DNA of 64,000 nucleotides, taken from positions 32,001 to 96,000 of the forward strand of contig JAEHCQ010000004.1 of assembly GCA_020696385.1 (NCBI GenBank), given 5' to 3'. This document shows, in pieces, positions 5,859 to 22,474 of the stretch (positions are counted from its first letter, which is position 1; each line of letters opens with the position of its first letter). Source of the DNA: Methanobacteriota archaeon. Lineage in GTDB: Archaea > Thermoplasmatota > Thermoplasmata > SG8-5 > JAGLSY01. The position numbers and the translations under genes are program-made. Below the pieces are notes generated by a model, which was not told where the DNA came from, did no database searches, and worked only from the letters and a program-made list of their open reading frames with translations.

Positions 5859-5876
5859 ACCAATTACTGAGAAAAC

Positions 5877-5935
5877 GATGGGATTTCTAATCGCCTTAGT
5901 TCTCTATCCCACTAGAGATTAGAAGAGTTAATACG
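5877..5935. repeat. Dispersed imperfect palindromic element, copy A (copy B at 26417-26495)
   Basis: GATGGG.TTTCTAATCGCCT...CACTAG.GATTAGAA.A..TAATACG shared with copy B. Confidence 0.65.
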
Positions 5936-6079
5936 ATCTCATTTTAATCCTATCTGGGTATTTACTCCATGGCTACCGTTTACTCTTCAAATACTTCCAC
6001 ATATTCATTGAATATAACTTGTGAGCCCTAAATAATTCAATAATAGGCTGTGAAGTCTTTAATTTCAACAATGGTCCTA

Positions 6080-6388: not shown

Positions 6389-6767
6389 GGTGATTCCCCC
6401 TTCTTTTGCCTTCTTCTTCCTCAGATCCTGTTCCTATCGTGGAGCTCATGGCCATGTTCCTGTCCCTGGACATTCTCATCAGGACATGTTCCTCATCCTT
6501 GTATTTGACGTACTCCTCGAAGGAAATATTCGGAGCAATGTCTCGAAAAATCTCAAAGGCCACCAGTTCGGAATTATTGGAGTGCATGTACCTTCCATCT
6601 CCGATCTCGTACACCATCTCGCCCCCGACCATCTTCTTCAGATCATCCTGGAGCTCGTCTTCTCCGAGCATGATCTTTTCAGAGAGGGTTTGCACGGAAA
6701 TAACTCTATCCGTGTTCTTTCTGAAGTGGGTCAAGAGCCTGTCTATATTGCTTATTGTCTGAGCCAT
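6375..6767 (-). CDS. Hypothetical protein with a possible N-terminal winged-helix
   Basis: ORF with host-like codon usage; ISVQTLSEKIMLGEDELQDDLKKMVGGEMV resembles a wHTH. Confidence 0.6.
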   Translation of the reverse strand: MAQTISNIDRLLTHFRKNTDRVISVQTLSEKIMLGEDELQDDLKKMVGGEMVYEIGDGRYMHSNNSELVAFEIFRDIAPNISFEEYVKYKDEEHVLMRMSRDRNMAMSSTIGTGSEEEEGKRRGNHLSQH

Positions 6768-7036
6768 TAAGCCGCCCAATACACTCAAGTGAATTAAAGG
6801 TTTTGCAGTTTTGTTGGCTTTGATTAGTCAGGCGGAGGTGTGAGATAATGGGCTTAAAGGGCTGAGAAAGAAAGATCATCAATACACGTCTTGCCAGTTA
6901 ATTTAACAAAACTAAAGTTTTCCCAAACCTTTATTAACAATACTTCAAATAACCTATAATAACATATTAATACTTTAATATTTTTGAAATATTAGGTAAT
7001 TATAAGCAACTGGCAACTGAAAAAGAAGGGGACGAT

Positions 7037-7741
7037 ATGAACAAGAAGGAACTTCAAACAAGCCTCTCCATAATGGGCAGGGAGAGGTCGCTGGACATTA
7101 TTTCGTTTGCTGTTGACCATGGCTGGTCAACAGCAACCGAGATATCTCATGGTCTGGACATGCACGTGGCAACCGCAGTTAAGCATTTGCAGGACCTGGA
7201 ATCGATCGATGTGCTGGAGTCCAGAACAAGAAAGGGAAAGACGAGAAGCGCCCTGGAATACAATATAAAAAATTCCAGGATATTCTACGATATCGACATC
7301 ATGTCTTTGGGTAGCCAGGGTGAGATGGAGAAGGACAATGATCTCCATCTTTCCATGGTCTTCTTGTGTGAATTCTCCCAGCGTCTTATGAGGTTCACTG
7401 GTAACACGACAGGGTCGCTCCTTGAGTCCTGGAAGAAGGATCTGGGTTTGGATGATGCCGTGTTGGGTCATCTGAGAACGTGCATTGATTCTTATGAACC
7501 AGATGATGAGAATAGATCATCTGGTTTGGCTGATAAGATGGATGGTTTGGACCATTTGCAGATAATTGACTCGATCCTCGAATTCGAAGAGCGAACAATG
7601 GGCAGGTCTTCATTGATCTCTCTTGTCAATATTTCACTGGCCCGGGCTTTCAAAGATATGAAAATGGAGGAGGAGGGATCCAACTCCTCACTTTACAAAT
7701 TGATCAATAAAAAATATTCGACAAGAGAGGTGGAAAAATGA
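7037..7741 (+). CDS. ArsR-like winged-helix transcriptional regulator with a C-terminal helical domain
   Basis: STATEISHGLDMHVATAVKHLQDLESIDVLESR HTH; ATGA overlap with the downstream KaiC-like gene. Confidence 0.8.
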   Translation: MNKKELQTSLSIMGRERSLDIISFAVDHGWSTATEISHGLDMHVATAVKHLQDLESIDVLESRTRKGKTRSALEYNIKNSRIFYDIDIMSLGSQGEMEKDNDLHLSMVFLCEFSQRLMRFTGNTTGSLLESWKKDLGLDDAVLGHLRTCIDSYEPDDENRSSGLADKMDGLDHLQIIDSILEFEERTMGRSSLISLVNISLARAFKDMKMEEEGSNSSLYKLINKKYSTREVEK

Positions 7742-8454
7742 CAATAAGTACTGGAATAAGCGGCTTGAACGAACTTGCTGGCGGGGGATTTCCCGAGCGG
7801 ACCATCAATCTAATATCCGGGCCTGCTGGGAGTGCCAAGACATTGTTCGGAATGCAGTTCATATTCAAGGGATTTACAGAGTATGGAGAAAAAGGGTTAT
7901 TCATCACCCTGGAAGAGAGCAGGGAGAATCTTCTTCGCGCCTCCAAGGCCTTTGGAATGGACTTTGACAAATTTAATGGAACAGATGATATCCAGCTCGT
8001 GGATTTTGGCGAGATGAGGAAGGATCTGGACCTGGAGGAGGATGTGGACCTTGGAATAGTCAGCCTCAGGAACTTGCTGGACTTTATAATCAAGACAGTG
8101 AAAGAGACTGGAGCAACCAGGCTACTCATCGACTCCATCTCCGCCATGGGATTGTATTACAATGATGTCGATGAGTTCAGAAGGGAGTTGTTCAGATTCT
8201 GCCGTATACTGAAGGATCACGACCTGACGACCGTGCTGATAACCGAGGCCAATAAGAGCGGGGAAACAAGATTCGGCATCGAGCAGTTCATTTCCGATTC
8301 CATAATAGTTCTGGATTATGAGAATGTCGAGGGCGAGTACAGGCGTACGATAACGATCTACAAGATGAGATTCGCCCGTCATGATCCCTACAAACATCCC
8401 TTCCTTATCATGAGCGATGGGATCGAGATAGACAGCCAGGAGACAATATATTGA
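7738..8454 (+). CDS. Single-domain KaiC-like (RecA-superfamily) ATPase
   Basis: STGISGLNELAGGGFP, Walker A GPAGSAKT, ITLEE, Walker B LLIDS, IYKMR. Confidence 0.92.
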   Translation: MTISTGISGLNELAGGGFPERTINLISGPAGSAKTLFGMQFIFKGFTEYGEKGLFITLEESRENLLRASKAFGMDFDKFNGTDDIQLVDFGEMRKDLDLEEDVDLGIVSLRNLLDFIIKTVKETGATRLLIDSISAMGLYYNDVDEFRRELFRFCRILKDHDLTTVLITEANKSGETRFGIEQFISDSIIVLDYENVEGEYRRTITIYKMRFARHDPYKHPFLIMSDGIEIDSQETIY

Positions 8455-8529
8455 CGATCTGTAGATCATAATTGATTGTCTTAAAATCATAATTTGTTAA
8501 TCTAAATATCATATTTAACTGGAGAAATA

Positions 8530-11500
8530 ATGCCTGAAGAAAAAACCGGATCATATGCCGTGATGGCTCTGGAGGAACAAACCTACCTGTCGATGGCCCA
8601 CCTTATTCAGAAATATGTGAATGAGGATAAGACCATCATCACGCTCGTTGCCACTTCTTCTGGAAAGGAATTGATCGAGGTCCTGGAGGGCATGGGCCCG
8701 GAAATGCAGGGTCTTGGAGAGAAGAACCAGCTCATTGTGATAGACTGGTTCTCATATCAGATATCCCAGGTCATCGGTGTTGAGGAGGAAGATAACTTAC
8801 TCCTATGTGCCAGGGCTCTTTTGAATGTGAACATGGCCGTGAACAAGGCCATCAAGATGCTGGAAGGATCTGAGAATATCGTATTTATAACCGATATTCT
8901 CCAACAATCTGTGGATATCTTCGGACCAGATGCCGCGATGGACTTCATGAGAAAGAACATGAGCAAGATGCATGATAAGAATATCACATCCGTCCATGTC
9001 ATATCCCCCAGCTTCGTGGAGCATGATATAGTTAATCGAATGCATGTCCAGTTAGGTCAGCCAGTCGATGTTGGATCGATCGTCGGAACCAGGATCGAGA
9101 CCTCGGACCTGATACTGGATGATAAGGGCACGATCGAGAACATAATCAATTTCCTTGGACTTTCTGTCGGTGAGGATTCTACCGATATTCAATTCTACTT
9201 GTGCGGGAACTGTGGGGCATTCCTGAACGAGCGCAGTGTGTTCTGCCCAATATGCCACTTCGCGGTGGAGGAAGACGCGGTAACTGACGAGATCCTGTCC
9301 CGCTGTTCGAGTTGCGGGGCATTGATAAGTTCCATCTCCCAGGATTGTGGAGTATGTGGGGAGATGTTCAGCCAGGACCTGGCAGCAGAAGCATTGGGTA
9401 AGGAGCTGGCGGAGGAGCATGATGATCTCCTTGAAACGATACCGGAGATCGATTTCCAAATGTGCAGTTCCTGTGGGACCTTTGTGGAAGGGGATATGGA
9501 AATATGCCCAAAGTGCGGGGAGATGATATCCACCGAGGTCTATGATGACATATTGGATATGGACCTGGAGGAAAAGCCAGATATGGATAGGCTGGAGACA
9601 GCTCCTGACCTCGATATCGGCATATGCGATTCCTGTGGCGCATTCCTGGGCAAGGGATCCCAGAGTTGTCCGAATTGCGATGAGATCCTAGACATGAAGG
9701 AATTCAGACTGGATGATGACCTCATCAATTCTTTGGGAGACCTGGAGGACGAGATGGGGGATATCGGCCCCTTGTCGAAAGAATTGACTGGTGTTCTATC
9801 CAGGGATCTGAATATTCCAGATGAGGATCCGGAGGAAGAAATCGACCTTCTCGAAACGGTTCCTACCATTGGTTTCACGGTCTGTGATTCCTGTGGAACT
9901 TTCGTTATGGGCGATTCCCGTTCATGCCCAAATTGTAAACAAATGGCGGTCGAAGAGAAGGATATACTGAAGGACGAAGTTCTCAGATCGCATATGGAGG
10001 ATCTCGAGGACGAGATGTTCTCCCTGGATCTATTGGAGTTGAAGGATGAGGATCTGGAAGAGGTCGATATTGTCGAACATGATACAGAAAGCGTATCCGT
10101 TGAGCATGATCCTGATGCGGCATTCGAAGAGGACTGGCTGCTATTGGAATTGGATGGACTGGATGACCTGGAGGAGGCATTGGCCGATACGGGTCCCGAT
10201 GCATTGGAAGAGGCATTATTGGCTGATTTATCATCGGCAGATGCGACAGAAAATATTGCATCTACCGATGATTATGAACTTGACCTGGATGACCTCGATC
10301 TGGATCTGGTAGATGATCCAGAATATGAACCTGAGCCAATCCTCGAGGAAGAGCCAGATGAGAACGTGGATGAACTCCTCGATTCTCTTGTCTTTGATTT
10401 TGATGAAGCTGATGAGCCAGATGCTCCACCGACCCCCATTGTCTTTGGTATCGATGGAGAAATAATTGAAGATCCAATAAAATTGGGTCATACGGATATG
10501 GAGGAAGTCGAGTCAGATGAAGAGATCCAGGATCTTCTCAATTCTCTTGAATTCACCATGGATGATGAAGTTGATGATGATGATGATCAGGAATATGAGA
10601 TCATCGATCTTGATGAAAGCCAGCATCATGATGACTACACCGAGGAAGAGTTGGAGGATGTATTGGATTCCCTGGTGTACGATGTGTCTGCTGAGAAGAT
10701 ATCACATTCCAGTGACCTCGAACTCTCTGAAAAGATGAGAAGGGAATTTGGCCATGCACATGGATTGACCAACGGTCAGGGACGTACTAATGGCCTGACC
10801 AATGGCCAAGGTGTTGCCCATGGTTTGACCAATGGAATAGGTCGAACGAACGGTATGACCAATGGTGTTGGCAGGACTAATGGTCTTACGAATGGCCAAG
10901 GCCGCACCAATGGCCTTACAAACGGTATGGGTAGAACCAATGGGATCACCAATGGCATGGGCAGGACGAACGGCCTTACAAATGGCCTGACCAATGGTTT
11001 GGTCAATGGCTCTGGCCTCGTGAACGGTGATGGCTTCTTAAATGGTGATTCTCTCGCTGAAAGAAAGCTGGATATATCCATATTGAGAAAAAATCGACAG
11101 AGAGCGCGTAGATGGAAAATTGGCCTTTTATCCATGATCATCGTGATATCCCTGATCATGTATGTTCCGATATTCACCGATAATATGAGCGAGATCGACA
11201 GAAGGGACATCTCGATAGATGGATCTTTCAATGACTGGAACAAGTTCCACACTCATATGGACAGAGTGTCGGATGTCATTAATCAGGATATAGATCTGGT
11301 GGATACGAAATTCTCTTTTGATGATCCCTATCTTGATATATTCCTTCAGGTGGATGGAACCATCCTGGGGGGCGATGGTGCGAATGGTACTGGCGTGGAT
11401 TCCATCTACGTTCTAATGGATGCAGATAGAAATCCCGATACTGGCTATTCCATCGACCACATGGGCATGGATGTTTTGATCGATATCCAGGGCTATGGAA

Positions 11501-13926
11501 ATCATGTAGCAGGGTCCGAGATGCTTAGATTCAATGATGCCAATGATAATGATGACTGGAATGGTTTCAGGTTTGAAAGACCCGTATCCAGTAAGATCAA
11601 TGAAAATATGATCGAGCTGAGGGTGGCGATGAATAGCATAATGGATCCCGAACACCCGTCCATCCTTGTCATCACCAGGGATTCGGAAGGTAATTCGGAT
11701 ATATCTGATGGAATCATGGTGCCGGATATGGCATCCCTTTCCATCCGATCGGATGCTGGCAATTCGAATGACATATTATTCTCAAATGAGATCCTTTCAT
11801 CTTCCTTCGAGTTCGTGTCTTATGGGGATGATATCGAGCTTGATTCATTGGATATTCGATTATTGGGAACAGCCAGCCCGAATATTCTTTCACAATTATC
11901 AGTTTACAAGGATATGAATTTCAATGGAATAGTGGAGCCAGTGATCGACGAGTTGATCGCTCTGCAAACCACCACGATAGATCGCTCACTCCATCTGGAA
12001 TTCGCAGATCCTATCACCCTATCACCATCTGAGAGGACGGTGCTCATTCTTTCATCCACTTTGATAGGAGCGGAGAATGGCCAGACCATTGGTTTCCAGC
12101 CTCTGGATGCTGGAATCGGAAATGAGATCATATTGGATATTGACACTGATATATCATTTATTCATCATTTTGGCACGCCATCTGATACAAAAATAGATGG
12201 CGCTTTCGGTGATTGGCAGTCCATATCACCGAATGTCGATGCTGCCAATGACCAGGCGATTCCCGGTCAGGATATCAGCCAGATGAAATTCGTGAACAGG
12301 AATGTGGATATCAGGGATTATCGAATAAGTATGGATGATGAGCTGAATATCTACGCGTCCGTGGCCGGGATCGCGATGGGAGGTTCGACAATACCAGTGC
12401 TCAGATATCGTACAATTCCATCCACCTCTAATATAACACCTCCGCCCGTGGTTCCAGTGGACTCGGACAATGATGGTGTTCCGGATATCGTGGATGGCCC
12501 TGGCGGCTCTCTTGCCAATGATTTCAATAATGATGGAATTGATGATGCATCCTCCAGCGGGGATCGTGATGGTGACAATATTATCGACTATAGCTCTGGA
12601 GGTGCGGATCACTGGCTCAATACCACCATCCCACAGAGCTTTGACAGCAATTATTCTGGCAGGTCTATAAGCCGTTATATTGGCCCTGTCAAGCACATTG
12701 AGAAAAAGGGCATGGACCATCTGCAGATATTCATAGATGCGGATGATGATATCGAAACAGGCCATTATGTAGATGGCTTGCTGGGTGCGGATCATCTAGT
12801 TCTTCTTACTGGCAAATCGAATACGATAATCTCCAGTGAGGTATATTTCTATGATGAAACATCGAATGGGATACCATGGACCTATTCCGGCAAAGCATCC
12901 GGGGCCAATGACCTATCCCGGATGGAGATCGGCATCCCTATCGAACTTGTCGGTGTGTCAAGACAATCCGATATCTCCATCGCTCTGGAAATGTCCGATT
13001 GGAGAAATACAGTGGATACCACGAACAGCATCAGACACATTGCCGAGGCTGTCAGATCATCCAGATCGATAGGCCCCGAGGAACCTGTTTCAGATCCAAT
13101 CGATCCAATGGCTCCCAAGCTACCCAATATGTCCATATCCAAAACAGCCAATGTGACTACCGCCCAGCCAGGTGACCTGATAACCTATGAAATATGGTAC
13201 AACAATACTGGTGCTGGGAAGGCCTGGGATGTTCAGATCGATGATGTACTTCCAGCGAATATTGATTATGTTATTGCCAATCCACTGCCCGCGACGATAG
13301 TTGGCCAGGATCTTGGCTGGACATTCAATCAGGTTGCCAGGCAGACCTCGAACCTTATAACTATCGAGGTGCAGGTGAATGCCAATGCGACCGATCTGGA
13401 ATCGCTGTCCAATTCCGTTATCCTGACCCATTCCTTGGGGGCAGATGCATCATGGGCCAATGTCACCTGCCAGCGACCTGTTATCGATATTCAGAAGGTC
13501 GCCAATGTCACATCGGCCTATGCCAATGATTCCATCATGTACACCATATTCTACAATAATACTGGATCCAACAATGCGGGCAATGTATGGATAAATGACA
13601 CATTGCCTTCTGGTATTATCTTCGATAGTGCGGTTCCAGCTCCTGCGACGATCGTCGGCCAGGATCTTGGCTGGTACTTCACGGATGTCGCGCCTGGCTC
13701 ACATGCGATCTTCATCAATGTGAGTGTCAATTCCACTCCACTTGCTGGTTCTATCGATAACTGGGCTCTTTTGAACTACACGGCCTCCAATGGCTACATG
13801 CTTTTGCCAGACAATGATGTGGCATCTATCAATATAATCGTAATTGATGAGTTCAGTAATATCTTATCAATTATCTTAATAACAATCGCAGGCATCTTCA
13901 TCATGCAGATCAGGCAGAGGCCTTAG
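8530..13926 (+). CDS. Giant membrane protein: degenerate KaiC-like N-domain, 5 zinc ribbons, acidic linker, GxTNG repeats, TM helix, extracellular beta domains, DUF11-like repeats, PEF-CTERM-like tail
   Basis: CxxCG(A/T)...CxxC x5; KIGLLSMIIVISLIMYVPIF TM; IDGxFxDW x2; DSDNDGVPD calcium-binding-like motif; SKTAN...PGDLITYEIWYNNTG-type repeat x2; IDEFS-hydrophobic-RQRP tail. Confidence 0.85.
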   Translation: MPEEKTGSYAVMALEEQTYLSMAHLIQKYVNEDKTIITLVATSSGKELIEVLEGMGPEMQGLGEKNQLIVIDWFSYQISQVIGVEEEDNLLLCARALLNVNMAVNKAIKMLEGSENIVFITDILQQSVDIFGPDAAMDFMRKNMSKMHDKNITSVHVISPSFVEHDIVNRMHVQLGQPVDVGSIVGTRIETSDLILDDKGTIENIINFLGLSVGEDSTDIQFYLCGNCGAFLNERSVFCPICHFAVEEDAVTDEILSRCSSCGALISSISQDCGVCGEMFSQDLAAEALGKELAEEHDDLLETIPEIDFQMCSSCGTFVEGDMEICPKCGEMISTEVYDDILDMDLEEKPDMDRLETAPDLDIGICDSCGAFLGKGSQSCPNCDEILDMKEFRLDDDLINSLGDLEDEMGDIGPLSKELTGVLSRDLNIPDEDPEEEIDLLETVPTIGFTVCDSCGTFVMGDSRSCPNCKQMAVEEKDILKDEVLRSHMEDLEDEMFSLDLLELKDEDLEEVDIVEHDTESVSVEHDPDAAFEEDWLLLELDGLDDLEEALADTGPDALEEALLADLSSADATENIASTDDYELDLDDLDLDLVDDPEYEPEPILEEEPDENVDELLDSLVFDFDEADEPDAPPTPIVFGIDGEIIEDPIKLGHTDMEEVESDEEIQDLLNSLEFTMDDEVDDDDDQEYEIIDLDESQHHDDYTEEELEDVLDSLVYDVSAEKISHSSDLELSEKMRREFGHAHGLTNGQGRTNGLTNGQGVAHGLTNGIGRTNGMTNGVGRTNGLTNGQGRTNGLTNGMGRTNGITNGMGRTNGLTNGLTNGLVNGSGLVNGDGFLNGDSLAERKLDISILRKNRQRARRWKIGLLSMIIVISLIMYVPIFTDNMSEIDRRDISIDGSFNDWNKFHTHMDRVSDVINQDIDLVDTKFSFDDPYLDIFLQVDGTILGGDGANGTGVDSIYVLMDADRNPDTGYSIDHMGMDVLIDIQGYGNHVAGSEMLRFNDANDNDDWNGFRFERPVSSKINENMIELRVAMNSIMDPEHPSILVITRDSEGNSDISDGIMVPDMASLSIRSDAGNSNDILFSNEILSSSFEFVSYGDDIELDSLDIRLLGTASPNILSQLSVYKDMNFNGIVEPVIDELIALQTTTIDRSLHLEFADPITLSPSERTVLILSSTLIGAENGQTIGFQPLDAGIGNEIILDIDTDISFIHHFGTPSDTKIDGAFGDWQSISPNVDAANDQAIPGQDISQMKFVNRNVDIRDYRISMDDELNIYASVAGIAMGGSTIPVLRYRTIPSTSNITPPPVVPVDSDNDGVPDIVDGPGGSLANDFNNDGIDDASSSGDRDGDNIIDYSSGGADHWLNTTIPQSFDSNYSGRSISRYIGPVKHIEKKGMDHLQIFIDADDDIETGHYVDGLLGADHLVLLTGKSNTIISSEVYFYDETSNGIPWTYSGKASGANDLSRMEIGIPIELVGVSRQSDISIALEMSDWRNTVDTTNSIRHIAEAVRSSRSIGPEEPVSDPIDPMAPKLPNMSISKTANVTTAQPGDLITYEIWYNNTGAGKAWDVQIDDVLPANIDYVIANPLPATIVGQDLGWTFNQVARQTSNLITIEVQVNANATDLESLSNSVILTHSLGADASWANVTCQRPVIDIQKVANVTSAYANDSIMYTIFYNNTGSNNAGNVWINDTLPSGIIFDSAVPAPATIVGQDLGWYFTDVAPGSHAIFINVSVNSTPLAGSIDNWALLNYTASNGYMLLPDNDVASINIIVIDEFSNILSIILITIAGIFIMQIRQRP
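10762..11049 (+). repeat. Coding tandem repeat (GLTNG-x-GRTN, ~10-aa period)
   Basis: GLTNGQGRTNGLTNGQGVAHGLTNGIGRTNGMTNGVGRTN...; synonymous codons vary between units. Confidence 0.9.
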
Positions 13927-16900
13927 CACTAGCACCTGCACTAACACCTTGCTGGTCCGACTTCTTTTTCCCGATCATCGACACGCATTTGAGTGCCTCG
14001 TCCTGCTTTCCCATCTTCATAAGTACATAGCCCTTATTGATCCAGGCATCCTTATAATTCGGATCAAGCTTGATCGCCCTATTGTAGTTCTTCAGGGCCT
14101 CGATATAATTCTCCTTTCTGGCAAATGCATTTCCTCTATTGTTCCAGGCGATTATGTACCTGGGATTGGCGATCAATGCATTATTGTATGATTCCAGGGC
14201 ACTGTCCATGTTCCCAAGTTTGGAATATGCATTTCCCTTGCTCACCCAAGCGACCTCGTTATTGGGATTGATGGAAAGGGCCATGTCCAGGCATTCGATC
14301 CCTTCCTTCAATTTTCCCATTAATATCAGGGTCGCACCTTTGCTATACCAGGGGACATCGTATTCCCTCGGATCACTGACTTTCGATACGGTTGTATCAT
14401 TGCTTTTCTCAAGTGCGCGATCATAGGATCTCAATGCCTTTTTGTAATCTTTATTGAGATAGTCCAAGTCTCCTCGAACGATCTCTGTCTCTATCGATGT
14501 ATGCAGATTTCTCTCATAGGCAAGGAGTATGGCACTGGCCACAATGAGGAATATGCCTATCCCGGCTATTATCGCTCCCGGGGGCTGGATGGGGGAATAC
14601 GCCCACTGCTCGAAATAATAAAGCTCTCCGATGGCGAATAGGAATAAGAATATGGTTCCAGATAACCACAGATGGATATAGCGAACCTTGCTCCTTATCC
14701 AGATTATGCCAATGCCGATCATGATTATACCAGTGGACAGGAGCATTTTATCCACCAGAGGGTCCTCGATCATCATACCCGCGAACCAGTGTAGGAGAAT
14801 GAAGGATATTATCAGCCCCCCGATCATGAATACGGATCCTCTATACAGATCGCCTTTCATGAATATGGATCTTGATGTGACCAGCATGATGATGGCGAAT
14901 ATCAGGATAATACCGAATATTATGGCCAGTGAAATTGGATTCACTGGTATGTAAGATGCAAGTGCGACATAGAATATGGATGTCAAAAGGGAAGCGATGA
15001 CCCCGTATTCCCATCCAGAGTGACCGAGATACTGTGGCCCTCCAGTGGTCTCCACCATGGCATGGGATCTGAAGGGAACGTGGACATCGTCATGAGTATC
15101 ATCGAGCATATCCTCTCCAGCATCGATGTCTATCTGGCTTGTGGGAATGGTCGTGGTCGGATCTTCCTCAGTTTCGTCCTCATAAACTTCGACCTCTTCA
15201 TACTCGATGTCGTCGTCAACCTCAACTTCCTCATACTCTATTCCATCATCAATTTCTACCTCTTCGTATTCGATCTCATCCCCATCTGAATTTACATAGA
15301 CCTCGACATCTTCATACTCGGTATCGTCATCAGTCTCAACTTTCTCAGATTCGATCTCACCATCCACTTCGGAATCATCGTATTCGATTATTTCCTCATA
15401 GTCACCGTGGTGGACACCCTCTTTAATATCTTCTTCAGAGAGGGATAGAGTATCATATTCCACATCTCTATCTTGATGGATATCATCATCATCCAGATAT
15501 CCATCCACTTTTATTTCATCTTTATCTATGTGCAGATCTACCAGGTCCAAACCTTCCAATTCATCTTCTTCGGACGGCACAACTATTGATTCGGCCATCG
15601 TCTCGTCAATGTCTATCAAAAGCTCATCCAGATCGTCTTCTATCTCATTCATTTCCTGAACAAGGCCATAGAATTTGGCCTTGTTAATTATGTAATTGGC
15701 CTTGGTTAGTTGCCCTTCTTCATAGGCCTTTTCTATCCTGGCCAGTTTTTCCTCATTTGACAGTTCCGGGCTCTTTTTCTGACCCGGTGATTCAGGCTCT
15801 TTCTTTTCAAGGATGAGATCATCCATATCATCTTCCATCTCATTAAGATGATCAATGGCACTTTCCCTTGTCAGATCGGGAATACCCAATTCGATGATAT
15901 CCGATATGTCCACCCTGTCATCATAGGACATCTCCTCTTCAATATCTACTTCATTATCGAGGAATGTGAAGCCACATACTTCACAATCTCCAGCCCCCAC
16001 CCCGAACTTCGATCCGCAGTTGGGACAAACACTGTCTGAAAGAATGACAGAGTCATCCTCCAGATCCATCACGATGCCATCATCCAGGCTCTGGCCACGC
16101 GATAAGTCTGAATCGCAGACCGAGCAAGCTGCGGCATTCGCTGAAACAAATGCTCCACAATCCGGGCAGAGTTCCAGTTCGCCACCGATCCTTTCCTCGG
16201 GAGATGTATCTCGTAATTCCAGCACTCCCAGTGCTTTTTTCAGGATATCCATTGGGTCATCCGCGTCCTTGCCCATCTCCAGGACATCATCTGCTTGGAT
16301 GGATTGCAGTAGGTTTACATCGACATCGGCTCCGCACACATTGCATGAATCTGAATCTGCTCTGATGAAAGCCCCACACTCGCCACAGATGGACATTTCA
16401 TCATGCCCATCAGTGGGCAGTTCCGTGTATATGATATCTGGAAGGTCTTGTTTTTCTGTCTGGCACACGGGACATTTTTGCTCATCCTGTGGAATGAAAG
16501 CCCCACATTTCTGACATATTCCGATATCATCAATATGTTCGGCCATTGGGTCCGGATCCAGTATGACATCATCCAGTATTCCGAGTATGGATCTCAAAGC
16601 GGTCTCCGTGTTCTTTCCATCATCCTCAATGGCCACAATCTCATCATCTTTCTCAATACCCAGATATCCACCGGATCTTATGTCATTTCCACAAACATTG
16701 CATTCTTTTGAGGATGGGGAAACAAATGCTCCACATTCGCCACATAGCATGATCTCATCGCCACCATCTCCTTCTATGGATATATCTCTGGACACTCTTT
16801 CGCTTATGGATTCCACGATCCTGGTCTTCTCTATTTCTTCACTGATATTGATGTGAAGTATGTCGGCATCATCAGCATGGTCACCTTCATGTTCGTCACC

Positions 16901-17485
16901 TGCCAGGCCTGGCCTGATATCGAGCACGATATCAGGATCTTCATCGAATAGATCCACGTCCTCAATATCCGGTATTTTGTCAATGACCGAGATCAGATCA
17001 TCTGGATCATCTATATTATCCAGTTCCAGAATAAGCTCATCCTCTTCCTGCACATCATTCTCGATGAGAAGGTTCAGCAGGTCACTATCATATTCCATCC
17101 CATCCGTATCTTCTCCATCCTCTTCGTCGAGGGGTATTCCACAATTGGGACACTCATTGGAATCCGAGCTGATGAAGGCTCCACACCCGGAGCAAAGGAA
17201 CAGGGTGACGGCTTCCTTTTCCCCCTCTGGTGAGATATTGTCATTCTCTTCGATCTTCATATCACAATTGGAGCATTCCCGTGCTCCTTTTTCCAATGAT
17301 CCTCCACACCTTGGGCAAGCAATCCCTAAGGTATCTAAGTCTTCATCTATCAGATCATTCAGACCCTTATCGAACTCCTCATCCACTTCCTCTTCCAATG
17401 GCTTGTTACAATTGGGACAAATAGAGGCCTCCTCGTTTATGAAGGCGCCACAAAATGGGCATAGATAAAGTGCGGAATCGCTCAA
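13910..17485 (-). CDS. Large membrane protein: 8 zinc ribbons, acidic region, SHOCT-like motif, ~6 TM helices, C-terminal TPRs
   Basis: CxxCG...CxxC x8; EEKLARIEKAYEEGQLTKANY; hydrophobic block; TPRs AWVSKGNAY, AWNNRGNAF, AWINKGYVL; TTG start after AGGAG. Confidence 0.85.
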   Translation of the reverse strand: MSDSALYLCPFCGAFINEEASICPNCNKPLEEEVDEEFDKGLNDLIDEDLDTLGIACPRCGGSLEKGARECSNCDMKIEENDNISPEGEKEAVTLFLCSGCGAFISSDSNECPNCGIPLDEEDGEDTDGMEYDSDLLNLLIENDVQEEDELILELDNIDDPDDLISVIDKIPDIEDVDLFDEDPDIVLDIRPGLAGDEHEGDHADDADILHINISEEIEKTRIVESISERVSRDISIEGDGGDEIMLCGECGAFVSPSSKECNVCGNDIRSGGYLGIEKDDEIVAIEDDGKNTETALRSILGILDDVILDPDPMAEHIDDIGICQKCGAFIPQDEQKCPVCQTEKQDLPDIIYTELPTDGHDEMSICGECGAFIRADSDSCNVCGADVDVNLLQSIQADDVLEMGKDADDPMDILKKALGVLELRDTSPEERIGGELELCPDCGAFVSANAAACSVCDSDLSRGQSLDDGIVMDLEDDSVILSDSVCPNCGSKFGVGAGDCEVCGFTFLDNEVDIEEEMSYDDRVDISDIIELGIPDLTRESAIDHLNEMEDDMDDLILEKKEPESPGQKKSPELSNEEKLARIEKAYEEGQLTKANYIINKAKFYGLVQEMNEIEDDLDELLIDIDETMAESIVVPSEEDELEGLDLVDLHIDKDEIKVDGYLDDDDIHQDRDVEYDTLSLSEEDIKEGVHHGDYEEIIEYDDSEVDGEIESEKVETDDDTEYEDVEVYVNSDGDEIEYEEVEIDDGIEYEEVEVDDDIEYEEVEVYEDETEEDPTTTIPTSQIDIDAGEDMLDDTHDDVHVPFRSHAMVETTGGPQYLGHSGWEYGVIASLLTSIFYVALASYIPVNPISLAIIFGIILIFAIIMLVTSRSIFMKGDLYRGSVFMIGGLIISFILLHWFAGMMIEDPLVDKMLLSTGIIMIGIGIIWIRSKVRYIHLWLSGTIFLFLFAIGELYYFEQWAYSPIQPPGAIIAGIGIFLIVASAILLAYERNLHTSIETEIVRGDLDYLNKDYKKALRSYDRALEKSNDTTVSKVSDPREYDVPWYSKGATLILMGKLKEGIECLDMALSINPNNEVAWVSKGNAYSKLGNMDSALESYNNALIANPRYIIAWNNRGNAFARKENYIEALKNYNRAIKLDPNYKDAWINKGYVLMKMGKQDEALKCVSMIGKKKSDQQGVSAGASAKASA

Positions 17486-17627
17486 AGTGATAGTCTCCTG
17501 TTTGATGTTACGGACAGTTTTTTATATATCTGTTAAGACTTATAAATAGATTTGCAGAATAATTATAAATTAATCCATCTTATGCAAATGATTAAAATAT
17601 GGTTAGCTATATTGGAGAACGGAAATC

Positions 17628-18380
17628 ATGCCCTCAGAAAATATTATTGAAAGAGAACGTTGCGTTACAGGAATAGATGGTTTGGATAATATTCTGAATG
17701 GAGGGATACCCAGAGGAAATACCATTTTGTTCACAGGCAGTTGCGGTACTGGAAAGACCACACTGTCCCTTGAATTTTTAGTGCATGGAGCTCTGGCCGA
17801 TGAGAATTCCCTTTTCGTATCTGTCACAGAGTCATCAGATAAATTGACAACCAATGTCATTCCTTACGACTTCTTCGAGGAATCCCTGATCAAGACAGGA
17901 AAATTGGCCTTTGTCGATATGCCAGTCATCTACGAGAGACTTGGCTTGACAAATGTGGAGTTCAGTCTGGAGGATGTGGATACCCTGGTACGAGCATTGG
18001 GGAATCTTGTGGACGAGCTTTCTGTGAAACGACTCGTCATTGACTCCATAACCTCTGTTTGCTATAGATTGAAAACAGAGGAAAAAATAAGGGAATTCAT
18101 ATTGAAGATAGGAAAGGCTCTTTCTAATAGGGGATGCACCAGTCTCTTGATATCCGAAATATCACCATCCGCAGATAGATATTCTCTATACGGGGTTGAG
18201 GAAGCCATAGCAGATGGGATCGTCCTAATGGGGAACTATGAACGCAGGGGAGATCTTTTGAGAACATTGCAGGTGGTCAAGATGAGGGGGACAACACATT
18301 CCAGAGCCAAATATGTCCTGGACCTGACACCTGCGGGTGTGCTTCTTGTTCCATTGCTCAAGGGCGGTGGAGGTATATGA
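17628..18380 (+). CDS. Single-domain KaiC-like ATPase
   Basis: TGIDGLDNILNGGIPRG, Walker A GSCGTGKT, Walker B LVIDS, VVKMRG. Confidence 0.93.
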   Translation: MPSENIIERERCVTGIDGLDNILNGGIPRGNTILFTGSCGTGKTTLSLEFLVHGALADENSLFVSVTESSDKLTTNVIPYDFFEESLIKTGKLAFVDMPVIYERLGLTNVEFSLEDVDTLVRALGNLVDELSVKRLVIDSITSVCYRLKTEEKIREFILKIGKALSNRGCTSLLISEISPSADRYSLYGVEEAIADGIVLMGNYERRGDLLRTLQVVKMRGTTHSRAKYVLDLTPAGVLLVPLLKGGGGI

Positions 18381-18958
18381 TCAAATCACCTGGTGATCTG
18401 GCGAATGAGCTTCATGAGCTCCCTCCTTCTTCTGCAATTAATCTCAAGATAGTCAGTGACAGTTATTTCGATGCCATAAGGGGAATAGTGGATATCTTCG
18501 CCAATAAGAAGAATTTAAATGTGATCTATATCACCGTGGCTATTCCATCACATTCGATAATCGATGTCCTCAAGATACTGGAGATCGACCTCACCAATAT
18601 CTACTTCGTGGATTGTGTTTCCCATATCATGATAGGTGGAGCCAAGAAATACAAGAACGTGCTCTATGTGGAGAGCCCCACGATGTTGGAGAATATCATG
18701 CTGAAAGTGGAATACCTCATAAGGAAGTCCGAGGGCAAGAACAATGTGATAGTTCTTGACGCGATCAATGCTCTGGGTATTCACAATAATATGAAGATAC
18801 TATCTGAATTCTTGCATATTTTTATAAACAATCTGAGGGCGAAGGATGCTTATTCCATGGTCTTCACGATGGAAGAGTTCAGCACTGATGAGATATCCAA
18901 TATGATGAAGCTGGTTTGCGATACCACAATAACCATCGGAGGTGGTGGAGATGGCTGA
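18377..18958 (+). CDS. Degenerate KaiC/RecA-fold protein (DUF835-like, no Walker A)
   Basis: VIYITV, YFVDCVS, IVLDAINAL, LVCDTTITI strand pattern typical of inactive KaiC-like domains; ATGA overlap. Confidence 0.7.
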   Translation: MIKSPGDLANELHELPPSSAINLKIVSDSYFDAIRGIVDIFANKKNLNVIYITVAIPSHSIIDVLKILEIDLTNIYFVDCVSHIMIGGAKKYKNVLYVESPTMLENIMLKVEYLIRKSEGKNNVIVLDAINALGIHNNMKILSEFLHIFINNLRAKDAYSMVFTMEEFSTDEISNMMKLVCDTTITIGGGGDG

Positions 18959-19697
18959 AACTACCAGTATAGGTGTTGCGGAATTGGACAAATCCCTAAT
19001 GAATGGAGTTCCAAGAGGATACACTATTCTGGTCACTGGCACTCCCGGAACTGGCGTCGAGCTCTTTGCCAAACAGTTCGCAGCAGCTGGCATTGGAAAG
19101 GAGAATGTCACATACTTCTCCACCACTGAAAGTGACGAAGCTGTGAAGAATGCCATGAAGGAGTTCGGATGGAAGCAGGATATAAGGGTCGTGAACATTG
19201 GCAAGATGTACTATGAAAAAGTTCTGGCCAAGAATCTCGAGGTCAGCAAGTATCGCCAGGAAGGATTGAAGATGCGTGATATCAAGCAATTCAATGCCAG
19301 CCAGGCCGAGCAAAGCCAGGATGTCAATTTCCTTACTACTCTGACTTATGGTATATCGAAGCTCAAGCCTCCTTTTAGAATTGTTCTGGATTCTCTGGAT
19401 TTCTTTCTTGAATATTATGATGAACCCGATGTGCTCTCCGCTATCAGGACCATCAAGGCACATACTCATCTCAATAATGGCATAGCTCTTGTCACCATGC
19501 TGAAAGGTGTCTTTGACAATCGGGTGGAAAGCGGTGTCCAGGATATTGTGGATATCACGATAGAGATCGAAAGACTGAGAGAGGGATCGGAATTCAAGAG
19601 GAACATATTGATCAGAAAAGTAAGGAATCATCCAGAGAAAACAAAGATCCTTTCATGTCACATCGATGAAAAGGGTATATCTGCGAAAACCCTATGA
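18951..19697 (+). CDS. KaiC-like protein with a degenerate Walker A
   Basis: GVPRGYTILVTGTPGTGVE (Lys and Thr lost), IVLDSLD, IRKVRN. Confidence 0.85.
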   Translation: MAETTSIGVAELDKSLMNGVPRGYTILVTGTPGTGVELFAKQFAAAGIGKENVTYFSTTESDEAVKNAMKEFGWKQDIRVVNIGKMYYEKVLAKNLEVSKYRQEGLKMRDIKQFNASQAEQSQDVNFLTTLTYGISKLKPPFRIVLDSLDFFLEYYDEPDVLSAIRTIKAHTHLNNGIALVTMLKGVFDNRVESGVQDIVDITIEIERLREGSEFKRNILIRKVRNHPEKTKILSCHIDEKGISAKTL

Positions 19698-19753
19698 CGC
19701 CTGTAACTCGTCAATAGACGTATATGCATACGGCAATAGACGAAATATTTTAA

Positions 19754-19767
19754 GAAAAGTATAAATA
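19754..19767 (+). promoter_or_regulatory. BRE/TATA box of the first pilin gene
   Basis: GAAAAGTATAAATA about 70 nt upstream of the ATG, followed by an AGGAGG RBS. Confidence 0.55.
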
Positions 19768-19833
19768 TATTGAACTTGTAATCCAATATCACGTAAATCT
19801 TAACTCAGGTTTTGATTTACAGGAGGACGAAAC

Positions 19834-20349
19834 ATGAAAAACACATGGAATATAAGAAAGAAGGAAGACGCAGTGTCTCCAGTTATCGCTACCATTTTGA
19901 TGGTCGCAATAACTGTGGTATTGGCTGCTGTGCTCTATGTTATGGTCATAGGGTTCGGCGGTGACGGTAGCTCCACCCCAGCAGGGTCATGGAATGCAGC
20001 CGCTGCAGACTCTCAGACTGAAGGAACATTGACCTTTGGTGCCTTTACAACAGATGTTGCACCATTGGACTTGAAAATATTCGTTAAAGCTAACGGAACA
20101 GCACTAGGTGAGATATCATTCACACAAAACACACTATCACCTCAGCCGCTCACATGGGTAGCTGGTGCACCTGCAACTGCAGTATACACAGATTATAATG
20201 CAGCTAACGGTGAGGTAAACTCTGGTGATTACATAACATTCACCGGTCTCAGTGCAGGAACCACTTACTCATTTGAAGTGTTCCACATTCCGTCTGATGC
20301 AACAGTCTCCATGACTGGTACAAACGGCCAGTTCCAGACACCAGCATAG
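19834..20349 (+). CDS. Archaeal type IV pilin (class III signal peptide), probably the major pilin
   Basis: RKKEDA/VSPVIATILMVAITVVLAAVLYV; strong RBS and its own terminator. Confidence 0.92.
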   Translation: MKNTWNIRKKEDAVSPVIATILMVAITVVLAAVLYVMVIGFGGDGSSTPAGSWNAAAADSQTEGTLTFGAFTTDVAPLDLKIFVKANGTALGEISFTQNTLSPQPLTWVAGAPATAVYTDYNAANGEVNSGDYITFTGLSAGTTYSFEVFHIPSDATVSMTGTNGQFQTPA

Positions 20350-20376
20350 ATAATCTAAGCTAGACGATTTGGACAA

Positions 20377-20417
20377 TGTGAGCCTTAACCGGCTCACACT
20401 CTTTTCCTTTTTCTTTT
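20377..20417 (+). terminator. Hairpin plus oligo-T terminator after pilin 1
   Basis: TGTGAGCC-TTAACC-GGCTCACA followed by CTCTTTTCCTTTTTCTTTT. Confidence 0.75.
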
Positions 20418-20810
20418 AAAATTCTCTCTTCTTAGAGGGTGTTATGTATTTTAGAAAGATTGACCTCCCCGCCATTCTAACGGGGTTTCGAATATAGAAC
20501 TGTCACTCGTCGAGATATAGAACATAGTACCCCGCCCCTGTATTTTTCGGGATTGCTCCGCCTGGCGCATATTACTGAACGGCTTCGCAACCTTCGAAAT
20601 TCGGGATATTTCGTCGAATATATGACGAATTTCTTCAGGCGGGGCATGTTCGCATACAAATGCCTTGCATGGACATCGCCTTGCATTCTGATGCCTCGCT
20701 TACACATTGCCACAGATTGCCAGCCTATTAGTAATAAAAATGTGTTTTAATATCGAAACGGTTTTATATAACTAACACATCTGTAGTATGTGGCACAGGG
20801 AAGTGTAAAT

Positions 20811-21332
20811 ATGAGATATAATCAATTCATTAGAGAGAAGGCAGGAGTTTCTCCTATCATAGCGACGATATTGATGGTAGCTGTCACGGTCGTTCTAGCC
20901 AGTGTTCTTTATGTCATGATAGTCGGTATGGGAAGTGGCTCTGCCGATCTTGCACCTCTAGGAATATGGTCATCCTCGGATATCACAGGGAATACCACAG
21001 CTACATACACTTTTGGCAGCTTCAGTTATGATGTCATACCAATAGATATCAAGATCATTGTGCAGGAAGGCGATAATCAGACCTTCACCGAGTTCACAGG
21101 GAGATTGCAGAACAAAACAACCCCTATGTTCTTGACAGGCAATAATACGGATACAATGAGCATCACTTATCAGGATAATAACTGGGGGGCCAATACTATA
21201 GGTGGTGGTGATAAACTATTCATCAGTGGTCTACAGCCAGATACTGTCTACACTGTCAGGGTATTTCACAAACCATCTGATCAGATCATACAGATGACCG
21301 GCGATAGCAGTTCTATCCAGACCCTTCCATAA
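20811..21332 (+). CDS. Archaeal type IV pilin, paralogue of pilin 1
   Basis: REKAG/VSPIIATILMVAVTVVLASVLYV; C-terminus VFHKPSD..QMTG matches pilin 1 VFHIPSD..SMTG. Confidence 0.9.
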   Translation: MRYNQFIREKAGVSPIIATILMVAVTVVLASVLYVMIVGMGSGSADLAPLGIWSSSDITGNTTATYTFGSFSYDVIPIDIKIIVQEGDNQTFTEFTGRLQNKTTPMFLTGNNTDTMSITYQDNNWGANTIGGGDKLFISGLQPDTVYTVRVFHKPSDQIIQMTGDSSSIQTLP

Positions 21333-21472
21333 TGTCTACTGTGAGCCATTATATTTGATATATGCTTAGTGAGAGTATTTTCAAGTTCAAATATCTCACA
21401 ATATTGAATTTACAGCCACAATCATTAAATATCAATCCATCCTATTTTGGATAATACAGAAAAGTGATCTAT

Positions 21473-21868
21473 ATGAAAGTAAGAAGCGGCCACATAAAAT
21501 TTGACAAGGGTGTTCAATACAAGGATTTCATACCCATATTCTCGGAGATGTACCTCAAGTTCCTGGAAGACACTGACCAGACTCCCGAAGAGGAAGAGGT
21601 AGTGCACATGATGATCAAGGAGAATCTCATCGACCTGGAGAGGAACAAGAAGCCAGAGGGCTACAATCGCCAGGGGCGCATGAGAATGATATTCCCTATC
21701 CAGGAAGAGAAAGAGGAACTGGAAGTTTACATCTACGGTCATTACCACTCAGCCAAATCACTGGAAGTGGCCAGGGTCACTGAATCCATGAGTAGATTTC
21801 TGAAAAGCAAGGGCTTTGAGAATGATGTGGACTGGGACAAGATGTTGATCCACAAATATAAGAAGTGA
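21473..21868 (+). CDS. Hypothetical protein
   Basis: ORF with host codon usage; contains NKKPEGYNRQGRMRMIFP. Confidence 0.7.
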   Translation: MKVRSGHIKFDKGVQYKDFIPIFSEMYLKFLEDTDQTPEEEEVVHMMIKENLIDLERNKKPEGYNRQGRMRMIFPIQEEKEELEVYIYGHYHSAKSLEVARVTESMSRFLKSKGFENDVDWDKMLIHKYKK

Positions 21869-21902
21869 TGATCTGTATATTCCTGCTGACCGTACACATC
21901 CA

Positions 21903-22460
21903 TCATAGCTCAACAGTTACAACATCCGAGTAGACCGGACCTTTTGGTGTAAGCTCGGACTTCTTCAAAATGATCTTCTCGACCTTAAGTGTGGTGAACT
22001 CAGAGCTCTCGAACCTTTTGACGGTTTCCGGCAAGCCGATCGTATCGAGTGTGTTCCCCACCCTCGCGATAGTGATATGAGGTGAGAACTTCCTTCTTTC
22101 CTGACGGAAGCCCATCATGGTCAAGCCGTCGTCCAGCTTCTCCGCGATATTGGACAAGATCTCTGTGTTCTCAAGGCCAGCCCATACCACCGATATCCTT
22201 TCGTAATTGGGAAACACACCAGTACCTTTCAGGTCCATTTCAAAGGGCTCATGTCCTTCGACAGCCTTCCTCATAAAGCTCTCGATCTCCGGGACCAATT
22301 CCTCGTCGATATCACCCAGGAACTTCAAGGTGATGTGAAGGCTGTCCAGCTTTACGAACTTAAGATCTGAATCTATCTCTCTCAAAGCCTTAACGAACTT
22401 CAAGAGCTCAGGAACGCGGCCTATATCGATAGCAATAAAACTCCTTATTTTATCATTCAT
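21903..22460 (-). CDS. thpR: RNA 2',3'-cyclic phosphodiesterase (2H / LigT family)
   Basis: RSFIAI, HITLKFLG and PHITIAR 2H motifs, KSELTPKGPVY. Confidence 0.92.
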   Translation of the reverse strand: MNDKIRSFIAIDIGRVPELLKFVKALREIDSDLKFVKLDSLHITLKFLGDIDEELVPEIESFMRKAVEGHEPFEMDLKGTGVFPNYERISVVWAGLENTEILSNIAEKLDDGLTMMGFRQERRKFSPHITIARVGNTLDTIGLPETVKRFESSEFTTLKVEKIILKKSELTPKGPVYSDVVTVEL

Positions 22461-22474
22461 ATCTCAAACCTCCA

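Follow-up and report, generated by a model that had tools for sequence, protein, structure and literature searches.

Two probably separate KaiC modules, one beside type IV pilin genes and one with a giant membrane protein, at a Thermoplasmata locus

Why should about 14 kb of an archaeal chromosome hold five KaiC-fold domains, thirteen zinc ribbons on two giant membrane proteins and a pair of type IV pilin genes? The stretch in question covers positions 7037–21332 (~14.3 kb) of a 64,000-nucleotide (nt) piece of contig JAEHCQ010000004.1, hereafter the window, from a Methanobacteriota archaeon of the class Thermoplasmata. Archaea largely lack sensory systems of the understood, bacterial type, and the proposal that KaiC-like proteins act as signaling hubs has few concrete, testable circuits to offer. 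A sequence-only reading of the stretch had taken it for a single integrated system, in which a transmembrane sensing and scaffolding complex controls the assembly or positioning of pili through heteromers of active and inactive KaiC. Our comparison of related genomes points elsewhere. Elsewhere in the order, the helix-turn-helix (HTH)–KaiC–giant genes and the KaiC–KaiC–KaiC–pilin genes stand at different loci, and the 14 kb is therefore a juxtaposition: the two modules are very probably separate and lie side by side only in the window's own family. The fuller account that we favor, to which we give an even chance, is of two independently conserved KaiC modules plus a family-specific scaffold, one module supplying a KaiC ring that serves the pili and the other a surface-to-transcription triad.

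All nine genes of the sequence-only reading were re-checked and confirmed at their coordinates. They are listed below with their Pfam or TIGR02537 matches, given as E-values and bits; the curated Pfam cut-offs are 26.6 bits for PF06745, 25.2 for Pilin_N, 27.3 for DZR and 28 for PAXNEB, and the cut-off for TIGR02537 is 20 bits.

7037–7741, + strand: winged HTH (wHTH) regulator, ArsR/HTH_20-like, 234 amino acids (aa), first gene of module A; assigned from its homologues
7738–8454, + strand: KaiC_A, single-domain KaiC-like ATPase; PF06745 4e-64, 216.5 bits
8530–13926, + strand: BIG1, 1798 aa; DZR/Zn_ribbon and two DUF11 matches by Pfam
13910–17485, - strand: BIG2, 1191 aa; DZR 2.5e-23, Zn_ribbon, TPR_1 3.6e-34
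17628–18380, + strand: KaiC_B, canonical single-domain KaiC ATPase; PF06745 6e-55, 186.6 bits
18377–18958, + strand: dKaiC_C, KaiC-fold pseudo-ATPase, 193 aa; PF06745 4.7e-5, 23.3 bits, below cut-off
18942–19697, + strand: KaiC_D, KaiC-fold protein with a degenerate P-loop; PF06745 9e-25, 87.9 bits; PAXNEB 1.3e-4
19834–20349, + strand: type IV pilin 1, 171 aa; Pilin_N 1.1e-11, 45.8 bits; TIGR02537 1e-12, 47.3 bits
20790–21332, + strand: type IV pilin 2, 180 aa as listed; Pilin_N 9.6e-8, 33.2 bits; TIGR02537 5.6e-9, 35.3 bits

The end of the wHTH gene overlaps the start of KaiC_A by 4 nt, KaiC_B overlaps dKaiC_C by 4 nt and dKaiC_C overlaps KaiC_D by 17 nt; BIG1 and BIG2 are convergent and share 17 nt. 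The claimed five KaiC-fold domains are borne out, those of KaiC_A, KaiC_B, dKaiC_C and KaiC_D by Pfam and their orthologues and that of the BIG1 N terminus (BIG1-N) by fold, and all KaiCs of the locus are single-domain proteins of 190–250 aa. Such clustering is unexpected by chance: with 30 PF06745 matches in the 2.28-Mb genome, 0.19 would be expected per 14.3 kb, and the probability of at least four is 4.5e-5. Genome-wide, the 30 KaiC-domain matches amount to about 25 genes, and recurrent pairings include those of a KaiC with an 858-aa protein bearing two degenerate KaiC domains (contig C22, 221189) and of a KaiC with a 611-aa ribbon/transmembrane/TPR protein (contig C11, 48190). Pfam scans of 48 window open reading frames (ORFs) agreed with the reported absence of a histidine kinase, chemotaxis (Che) gene, KaiA or KaiB and likewise returned no receiver domain, pilus ATPase, or T2SSE or T2SSF gene; the scans took ORFs of at least 120 aa outside positions 5000–24000 and selected ORFs inside, and a KaiB-sized gene (~100 aa) could be missed. 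HATPase_c was matched in these ORFs by topoisomerase VI B only.

Module C (17628–21332) sets one apparently active KaiC beside two degenerate ones, as the earlier reading had seen: the canonical P-loop is present in KaiC_B and lost in the other two. Across an alignment of 74 KaiC_B sequences, which share 56–98% identity across the class, the motif GxxGTGKT (G37..G40 T41 G42 K43 T44) and residues E68, D139 and R220 are invariant, and a profile search of the PDB returns KaiC CI at 1e-55 to 4e-64 as well as PH0186/PH0284. dKaiC_C has no P-loop and carries instead the invariant motif ESPTMLENIMLK; PF06745 is matched by 72 of its 74 orthologues (E-value ≤0.01), and the family comprises 1411 clusters at E-value ≤1e-10, whose names read only 'hypothetical' or 'KaiC/GvpD/RAD55 family RecA-like ATPase'. 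In KaiC_D the P-loop has decayed to GxPGxGxE, with the Walker lysine and threonine lost in all 14 orthologues inspected (41 were collected). Judged by these motifs (Walker A plus catalytic glutamate), KaiC_B is a predicted active ATPase, whereas KaiC_D, dKaiC_C and BIG1-N are not. The module is widespread: dKaiC_C occurs once per genome in 21 of 22 members of the order, at 59–98% identity, and its profile finds a match in 118 of 151 sampled genomes of the class (a tally that includes one unpublished genome, G109) and in 27 of 29 families. Profile search found none in the families f9 (0 of 16 genomes) and f20 (0 of 12).

Structure prediction suggests that the active and inactive proteins meet. 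Three runs of the modeled complex of KaiC_B and dKaiC_C gave an interface score (ipSAE) of 0.69, whereas the best of three controls scored 0.01; 58 of 80 solved complexes attain this mark, as do 2 of 110 mismatched pairs. At least 94% of contacts are shared between the runs, and the partner has a predicted local distance difference test (pLDDT) of at least 86. The predicted interface joins residues 206–211 and the C-terminal 230–248 of KaiC_B to residues 99–117 and 138–152 of dKaiC_C, and it is made largely of conserved positions: 17 of 19 interface columns in KaiC_B and 15 of 21 in dKaiC_C are either invariant or conserved to 90% or more, compared with 46% and 24% of columns overall. A heterodimer through invariant motifs of both proteins is thus predicted, and to this extent the earlier idea of active/inactive KaiC heteromers gains ground.

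The order of these genes has been kept over long distances. In a pattern scan of species representatives, which yielded 120 relatives and left 80 loci for use, KaiC_B stands directly upstream of dKaiC_C in all 74 loci with room for it, KaiC_D directly downstream of dKaiC_C in 43 of 61, and at least one same-strand pilin follows within 4 kb downstream in 40 of 47. As a control, the genes that flank KaiC_B on its far side were sorted into families: the 58 loci have 16, and no family accounts for more than 14 of them. Because this flank varied while the pilins stayed, the pilin link has outlasted repeated rearrangement. The sequence-only reading had named the linkage of pilins and KaiC genes in relatives as one of the points on which it should be judged, and there it has come through class-wide.

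Both pilin genes encode, in translation, a charged stretch, A/G and a VSP-hydrophobic helix (the class III type of signal), and the solved archaeal pilins 8fj5, 8gi2 and 9myg match pilin 1. The two genes are 440 nt apart. Read by eye against the general promoter and terminator consensus, pilin 1 has its own TATA-like box and a GGAGG upstream and a hairpin with a T-run past its stop; pilin 2 likewise has a separate TATA-like box, and translation may really begin 21 nt further downstream, at an ATG. A soluble 134-aa protein with no family match is encoded 3' of pilin 2 (21464–21868, + strand), a place it keeps within the family (loci L003, L019 and L031). The machinery lies elsewhere: T2SSE ATPases number just two in the genome, both encoded on a different contig (C11) in a single PilB-PilC-PilC-PilB locus that has no pilin or KaiC beside it. 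Pilin_N is matched five times in the genome, by the two genes here, one other small gene and two giants, and the prepilin peptidase PF01478 was not found in this 94%-complete assembly, other peptidase families not having been searched. In family f12, 5 kb separate the KaiC operon from PilB-PilC-PilC-PilB, a linkage that we set aside as too weak, with NrdR, NrdD and others intervening.

On the account that we favor, the active KaiC_B and the pseudo-ATPase dKaiC_C, probably joined by KaiC_D, would build a mixed KaiC-type ring, with ATP turnover confined to one type of subunit. This assembly would serve the only type IV pilus system of the genome, whose two major small pilin genes adjoin it and whose PilB-PilC-PilC-PilB genes are elsewhere. 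It might do so in the manner of ArlH, by docking on the assembly ATPase (here PilB) in a nucleotide- or phosphorylation-dependent way, or in the manner of CirA, by setting expression.

Module A (7037–13926) is built around BIG1, whose parts are as follows.

8530–9174, + strand: inactive KaiC-fold domain, residues 1–215, by fold
9202–9936, + strand: five zinc ribbons, by regular expression and Pfam
10027–10749, + strand: acidic linker, 40% aspartate plus glutamate
10762–11049, + strand: TNG/VNG repeats, residues 745–840
11110–11166, + strand: transmembrane segment
11170–13818, + strand: Ig-like beta-sandwich ectodomain, with two DUF11 at 13123–13809
13819–13875, + strand: C-terminal transmembrane anchor

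BIG1-N has no Pfam match, nor does the domain in any of seven orthologues, and its membership of the KaiC fold is drawn from structure. Its AlphaFold model (pLDDT 76) was compared by VIA-align with 48,161 PDB representatives, the best matches being two KaiC-like proteins of archaea, PH0284 (Z 14.0, root-mean-square deviation 3.3, 174 aligned) and SSO2452 (Z 13.0), followed by KaiC CI (Z 11.7) and FlaH (Z 11.0 and 10.7), with Elp456 also among the matches (Z 9.9). We accordingly read residues 1–215 as a probable inactive KaiC-fold domain, by fold only. A profile of the domain collects 155 representatives among 1.84 billion proteins; among the 150 matches listed, 31 are proteins of at least 1300 aa that mostly carry the domain at the N terminus, and many others are of about 850 aa with two copies of it. 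The ectodomain, modeled at pLDDT 78 as a chain of beta-sandwiches, finds its best Foldseek matches in integrin alpha legs and the SdrG/ClfA/CNA/PrgB adhesins, at TM-scores of 0.1–0.17 that are low and fit a generic Ig-like stalk. These matches include no recognized ligand-sensing domain, which does not exclude one, and an ESM Atlas search with the ectodomain gave no usable match; its appearance is that of a stalk or adhesin at the cell surface, not of a recognizable ligand sensor. The TNG/VNG repeat has an 11-residue period and 17 copies in BIG1, is cytoplasmic, lies directly before the transmembrane segment and has no family match; the same juxtamembrane repeat occurs in all five ectodomain paralogues of the genome (BIG1 and those at C11:189592, C22:112594, C33:203494 and C48:81189, as contig:position).

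The two genes upstream of BIG1 are a regulator and a KaiC. The wHTH protein has no Pfam match of its own; PF12840 HTH_20 is matched by five of seven homologues (eight matches including the window's own protein), its orthologues in L004 and L016 match HTH_20 below cut-off (7e-5 and 1e-4), and the ESM Atlas gives only leads below 0.9 to wHTH clusters. KaiC_A has a TLEES motif and a variant P-loop, GxAGSAK[ST], that is kept in all seven orthologues; its ATPase activity is uncertain.

Sixteen loci were fetched around BIG1-like matches. In the six that are orthologous, a KaiC_A orthologue (E-value ≤1e-72) stands directly upstream of the giant every time, and the giants share the N-terminal inactive KaiC domain and carry 4–12 ribbons. 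The other ten hold a paralogous triad in a different order, namely a second KaiC (KaiC2, in nine of ten), a double-wHTH protein (an HTH in nine of ten) and a giant with HhH, 8–11 ribbons by regular expression, and TPR; here KaiC2 has a canonical P-loop, and SLDEN in place of TLEES. We considered the 338-aa PdxS gene beside the paralogous triad as a member and dropped it as a housekeeping gene. Within this genome, five proteins combine TNG repeats, transmembrane segment, ectodomain and C-terminal transmembrane segment, three of them adjoined by KaiC and wHTH genes, and in the class sample KaiC_A-like genes lie beside BIG1-like giants in at least six genomes, one of this order (G009) and five in other families. 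The triad is conserved across the order and is present in three paralogous copies in this genome.

A further gene of the window bears on the domain set of these giants:

27468–29042, - strand: inactive KaiC domain (P-loop GPPGSEKY) fused to HhH, TPR and one zinc ribbon

Its KaiC domain is the closest relative of BIG1-N (2.8e-7). Since the fusion carries inactive KaiC, HhH, TPR and a ribbon of the same type, these domains are tied together as a set. The fusion gene is followed by one for a GHMP-kinase-like protein of 334 aa (together 26527–29042, - strand), a pair kept at several loci of the order (L019, L024, L025 and L027); we claim no functional tie between the two.

For module A, the account that we favor makes BIG1 a single-pass surface protein with a cytoplasmic tail of inactive KaiC and a string of zinc ribbons. 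The tail would recruit KaiC_A, and the adjacent wHTH protein would provide a transcriptional output, completing a surface-to-gene signaling triad.

Between the modules lies BIG2, with these parts.

13946–14458, - strand: TPR, by Pfam
14540–15007, - strand: six hydrophobic segments, predicted transmembrane
15974–17461, - strand: eight zinc ribbons, by regular expression; an acidic region is also present

The expression C-x2-C-x6-22-C-x2-C finds five ribbons in BIG1 and eight in BIG2, all of one 18-residue geometry that aligns without gaps, so the 13 similar ribbons reported earlier are there and are of a single type. In 1000 composition-preserving shuffles the means were 0.006 for BIG1 and 0.024 for BIG2, with a maximum of 1, and the DZR scores of 49.8 bits (BIG1) and 82.4 bits (BIG2) both exceed the cut-off; by cysteine pattern and Pfam the 13 units are putative metal binders. 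Lysine and arginine occur only in loops 2 and 4 between the six segments of BIG2, and the outer loops are 2–11 residues long. By the positive-inside rule, both termini would then face inward, which places the ribbons and probably the TPR in the cytoplasm. Tiny outer loops and a cytoplasmic TPR make BIG2 look like a scaffold and not a sensor, and we picture it as a membrane-anchored, cytoplasm-facing ribbon/TPR scaffold that shares its ribbon family with BIG1. Of the proposed sensing and scaffolding, the scaffold thus finds a candidate in BIG2, whereas the sensor does not find a recognized domain in the BIG1 ectodomain. Genome-wide, a small KaiC gene lies no more than two genes from 5 of 23 multi-ribbon proteins (at least 400 aa, at least two ribbon patterns), where shuffling gives a mean of 0.95 and 10 of 2000 shuffles reach 5. 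KaiC does recur beside ribbon proteins, as the sequence-only reading implied in linking KaiC, zinc-ribbon membrane proteins and pilins, but not as one 14-kb system. In family f4, multi-ribbon membrane proteins lie about 3 kb beyond the KaiC-linked pilins, and their orthologues in this genome are on another contig; they form a pair of ribbon–transmembrane hairpin–ribbon proteins (C46:68932–73520 here, with 5 and 13 ribbons; L024:1836–4502 and L028:906–5585 in f4).

A number of observations weigh against the two-module account. Unrelated genes take the place of pilins after the KaiC genes in 7 of the 47 loci. The pilins have TATA-like boxes of their own and pilin 1 its own terminator, as read by eye, so that adjacency to the KaiC genes is not simply co-transcription. 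Two complete f20 genomes have pilins and 3–4 T2SSE ATPases without dKaiC_C; such pili therefore do not need the KaiC module. A T2SSE gene is present in 150 of 151 class genomes, which makes its co-occurrence with the module uninformative. The conservation of KaiC_B is more like that of a core cellular function than of a pilus accessory. The loci are related genomes of one class rather than independent samples, and their genes were called with a simple in-house ORF script. The complex score may owe something to solved KaiC hexamers, its controls having been unrelated proteins and not paralogous KaiCs. Direct hhalign comparison of the degenerate domains (BIG1-N, dKaiC_C) with KaiC_B is weak (13.6%, 0.3% and 5.3%), and because these probabilities are low the assignment of such domains to KaiC rests on Pfam counts over orthologues and on fold. 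The ArlH model NF052589, with a cut-off of 215 bits, is not reached by KaiC_A (48.1), KaiC_B (36.2) or KaiC_D (49.9). In module A, a wHTH gene was found at four of the six KaiC_A orthologous loci and went undetected at two. BIG2 is divergent from KaiC_B only within the family (L003, L019, L031 and L032), and 18 of the 23 multi-ribbon proteins, the ribbon-richest included, have no KaiC neighbor, with two of the five positives being the window's own.

The best surviving alternative, to which we still allow an appreciable minority chance, is that KaiC_B, dKaiC_C and KaiC_D form a general signaling hub or core machine unrelated to pili, the pilins being adjacent through shared history or a shared regulatory region. 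The very high conservation of KaiC_B and dKaiC_C speaks for it, as do the seven loci without pilins, the f20 genomes of piliated type that lack the module, the look of separate transcription units about the pilins, and ArgRS and other housekeeping genes that neighbor the operon in one family. It fits poorly with the persistence of pilin adjacency (40 of 47 loci) beside an opposite flank that ranges over 16 families, and with the five genomes lacking dKaiC_C, three of which also have no Pilin_N gene and no more than a single weak match to T2SSE.

For module A, the giants could be plain adhesins or envelope proteins, with KaiC_A and the HTH protein acting as local transcription regulators and the tail not signaling at all, which we consider rather unlikely. 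The adhesin-like ectodomain with its DUF11 repeats and C-terminal anchor, the many giant paralogues per genome, and the two of five paralogues without a KaiC or HTH gene nearby would all suit it. What it leaves hard to explain is the tail, which itself carries the inactive KaiC domain, N-terminal in most of the 31 giants among the profile matches listed, along with the ribbons, HhH and TPR that occur elsewhere as a set joined to inactive KaiC. At the other extreme, and to about the same degree doubtful, is a bolder version of the two-module account, an integrin-like, outside-in device in which the tails of the adhesin-like giants, each with a dead KaiC domain, zinc ribbons on polyacidic linkers and a TNG repeat by the membrane, recruit live KaiC and wHTH proteins and so turn contact at the surface into transcription, and in which a class-wide ring of one live and two dead KaiC subunits gates pilus production. 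Any cross-talk between the modules is likewise an inference.

Improbable, in our judgment, is a single complex of all nine genes in which BIG1 senses, BIG2 scaffolds and heteromers of the five KaiC folds control the assembly or positioning of pili. In its favor, the complete order is kept in the genus and family (L003, L019, L031 and L032), the ribbons of BIG1 and BIG2 are of one type, and ribbon proteins reappear near the pilins in f4. Against this, the halves are at different loci outside the family, the f4 ribbon proteins are orthologues of the pair on another contig here, and BIG2 has no sizeable outer part; nothing bears on positioning, for which the earlier proposal finds no support, and as a single integrated system the 14 kb does not hold up.

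Eukaryotic Elongator contains a heterohexameric ring of three different RecA/KaiC-like subunits, Elp4/5/6, with degenerate nucleotide sites, and that KaiC_B–dKaiC_C–KaiC_D might be its archaeal counterpart, acting on tRNA with Elp3, is scarcely credible: three paralogous KaiC-fold genes in one operon with two degenerate, weak Pfam matches to Elp4 and Elp5 families (PAXNEB in KaiC_D, Elong_Iki1 in 44 of 74 dKaiC_C orthologues with a best E-value of 5.4e-5), the Elp456 fold match of the related BIG1-N domain and an Elp3-like gene in the genome invite the comparison, but the Pfam matches all fall below cut-off (PAXNEB 21.5 vs 28 bits) and are explained by a shared fold, the neighbors that the operon keeps are pilins and not RNA genes, and neither phyletic pattern nor genome position links it to Elp3: the Elp3-like gene here sits on a different contig, and five of five genomes without dKaiC_C have one as well.

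The rest of the window is of a different character. The flanks of the locus are housekeeping genes (tRNA synthetases, eRF1, topoisomerase VI, SMC). At 264–1085 (- strand) there is a Ras-family small GTPase of 273 aa (PF00071 2e-40, Roc 1.5e-26), here in a Thermoplasmata genome. A low-GC island at 34001–38000 (0.34–0.39 vs about 0.45), beside the topoisomerase VI genes and likely a defense or mobile insert, encodes an AAA_21/AAA_15 (AbiEii-like) ATPase (35167–36288) and an unknown 206-aa protein (36289–36909). Peptide ABC transporter permeases at 47307–51585 (+ strand) are unusually long (656 and 767 aa) and carry DUF7743 and beta-propeller/PQQ-like inserts, and at 55221–57092 (+ strand) a 223-aa protein with a CesT_Tir_1-like (chaperone-type) match precedes a 390-aa TPR protein.

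Taken at its present strength, the locus offers two candidate circuits, a KaiC/pseudo-KaiC operon by pilin genes, found in 118 of 151 genomes, and a triad of KaiC, regulator and giant. The defined proteins and residues of both modules are targets for pull-down, ATPase, phosphorylation and structural work. If the pilus link is true, it would explain how pili are controlled when pilin genes lie far from the machinery; if the integrin-like version is true, it would give the proposed archaeal KaiC signaling network its first concrete wiring.

How does this compare with systems already described? The cyanobacterial KaiABC clock, which combines a double-domain KaiC with KaiA and KaiB, is not what the locus holds, KaiB having been searched for in the window and not genome-wide. 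Neither the KaiC/inactive KaiC/inactive KaiC–pilin operon nor the triad with a multi-ribbon giant is described in the literature searched, from which subscription journals were mostly absent, and to that extent the claim of an uncharacterized architecture stands for the arrangements; it does not extend to their ingredients. KaiC hubs, inactive KaiC (iKaiC) domains, the association of KaiC with type IV pili, ArlH and CirA are all known in kind. KaiC arCOGs were reported near archaellum and type IV pilus systems, often in predicted operons with them (Makarova 2016, PMC4858521, in whose main text 'Thermoplasma' has no occurrence). iKaiC domains and the hub proposal are set out by Galperin 2018, citing Makarova 2017 (PMC5847659), and the inactive KaiC-fold proteins here correspond to iKaiC in the sense of a KaiC fold with its ATPase motifs lost. 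The cysteine-rich, DZR-like TackOD1/arCOG06883 domains accompany signaling proteins and thaumarchaeal type IV pilus loci (PMC5847659, PMC4858521); they are small output domains or proteins, unlike the 5–13 single ribbons on acidic linkers found here, which form the cytoplasmic parts of membrane proteins of 1000–2900 aa.

Among pilus systems, the CdiP pilus of Cuniculiplasma divulgatum (Thermoplasmatales) has a machinery operon with two ATPases and a split platform, and pilin genes 862 bp apart at about 500 kb from it, the major pilin being the most expressed gene (PMC12448462). The likeness to the T2SSE-T2SSF-T2SSF-T2SSE locus and the paired pilins on another contig of this genome is one of layout. 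It ends at the KaiC genes, which are not mentioned beside the CdiP pilins in the sections of PMC12448462 drawn on here, and the family of small complete genomes with pilin pairs has no dKaiC_C. Another comparison is with CirA of Haloferax volcanii, a KaiC-like protein that lowers arl transcription; when pilA1-6 are missing, the resulting loss of motility is suppressed by cirA mutations (PMC10983859). It is likewise a KaiC-like regulator genetically tied to pilins; it differs in adjoining archaellum genes rather than pilins, in acting on swimming, and in that a heteromer of active and inactive paralogues is not described for it in the sections of that article drawn on here. A further model for the proposed ring is ArlH (FlaH), which autophosphorylates, depends on its catalytic glutamate and is likely hexameric in complex with the ATPase ArlI (ArlH preprint). 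Like ArlH, the KaiCs of module C are single-domain KaiC-fold proteins that would work with a type IV filament machine, and the inactive BIG1-N domain has FlaH structures among its fold matches. They differ from it in standing outside any arl operon (ArlI/ArlJ), in a genome whose only such ATPases are the PilB pair, and in offering three different subunits, two of them inactive, where ArlH has one.

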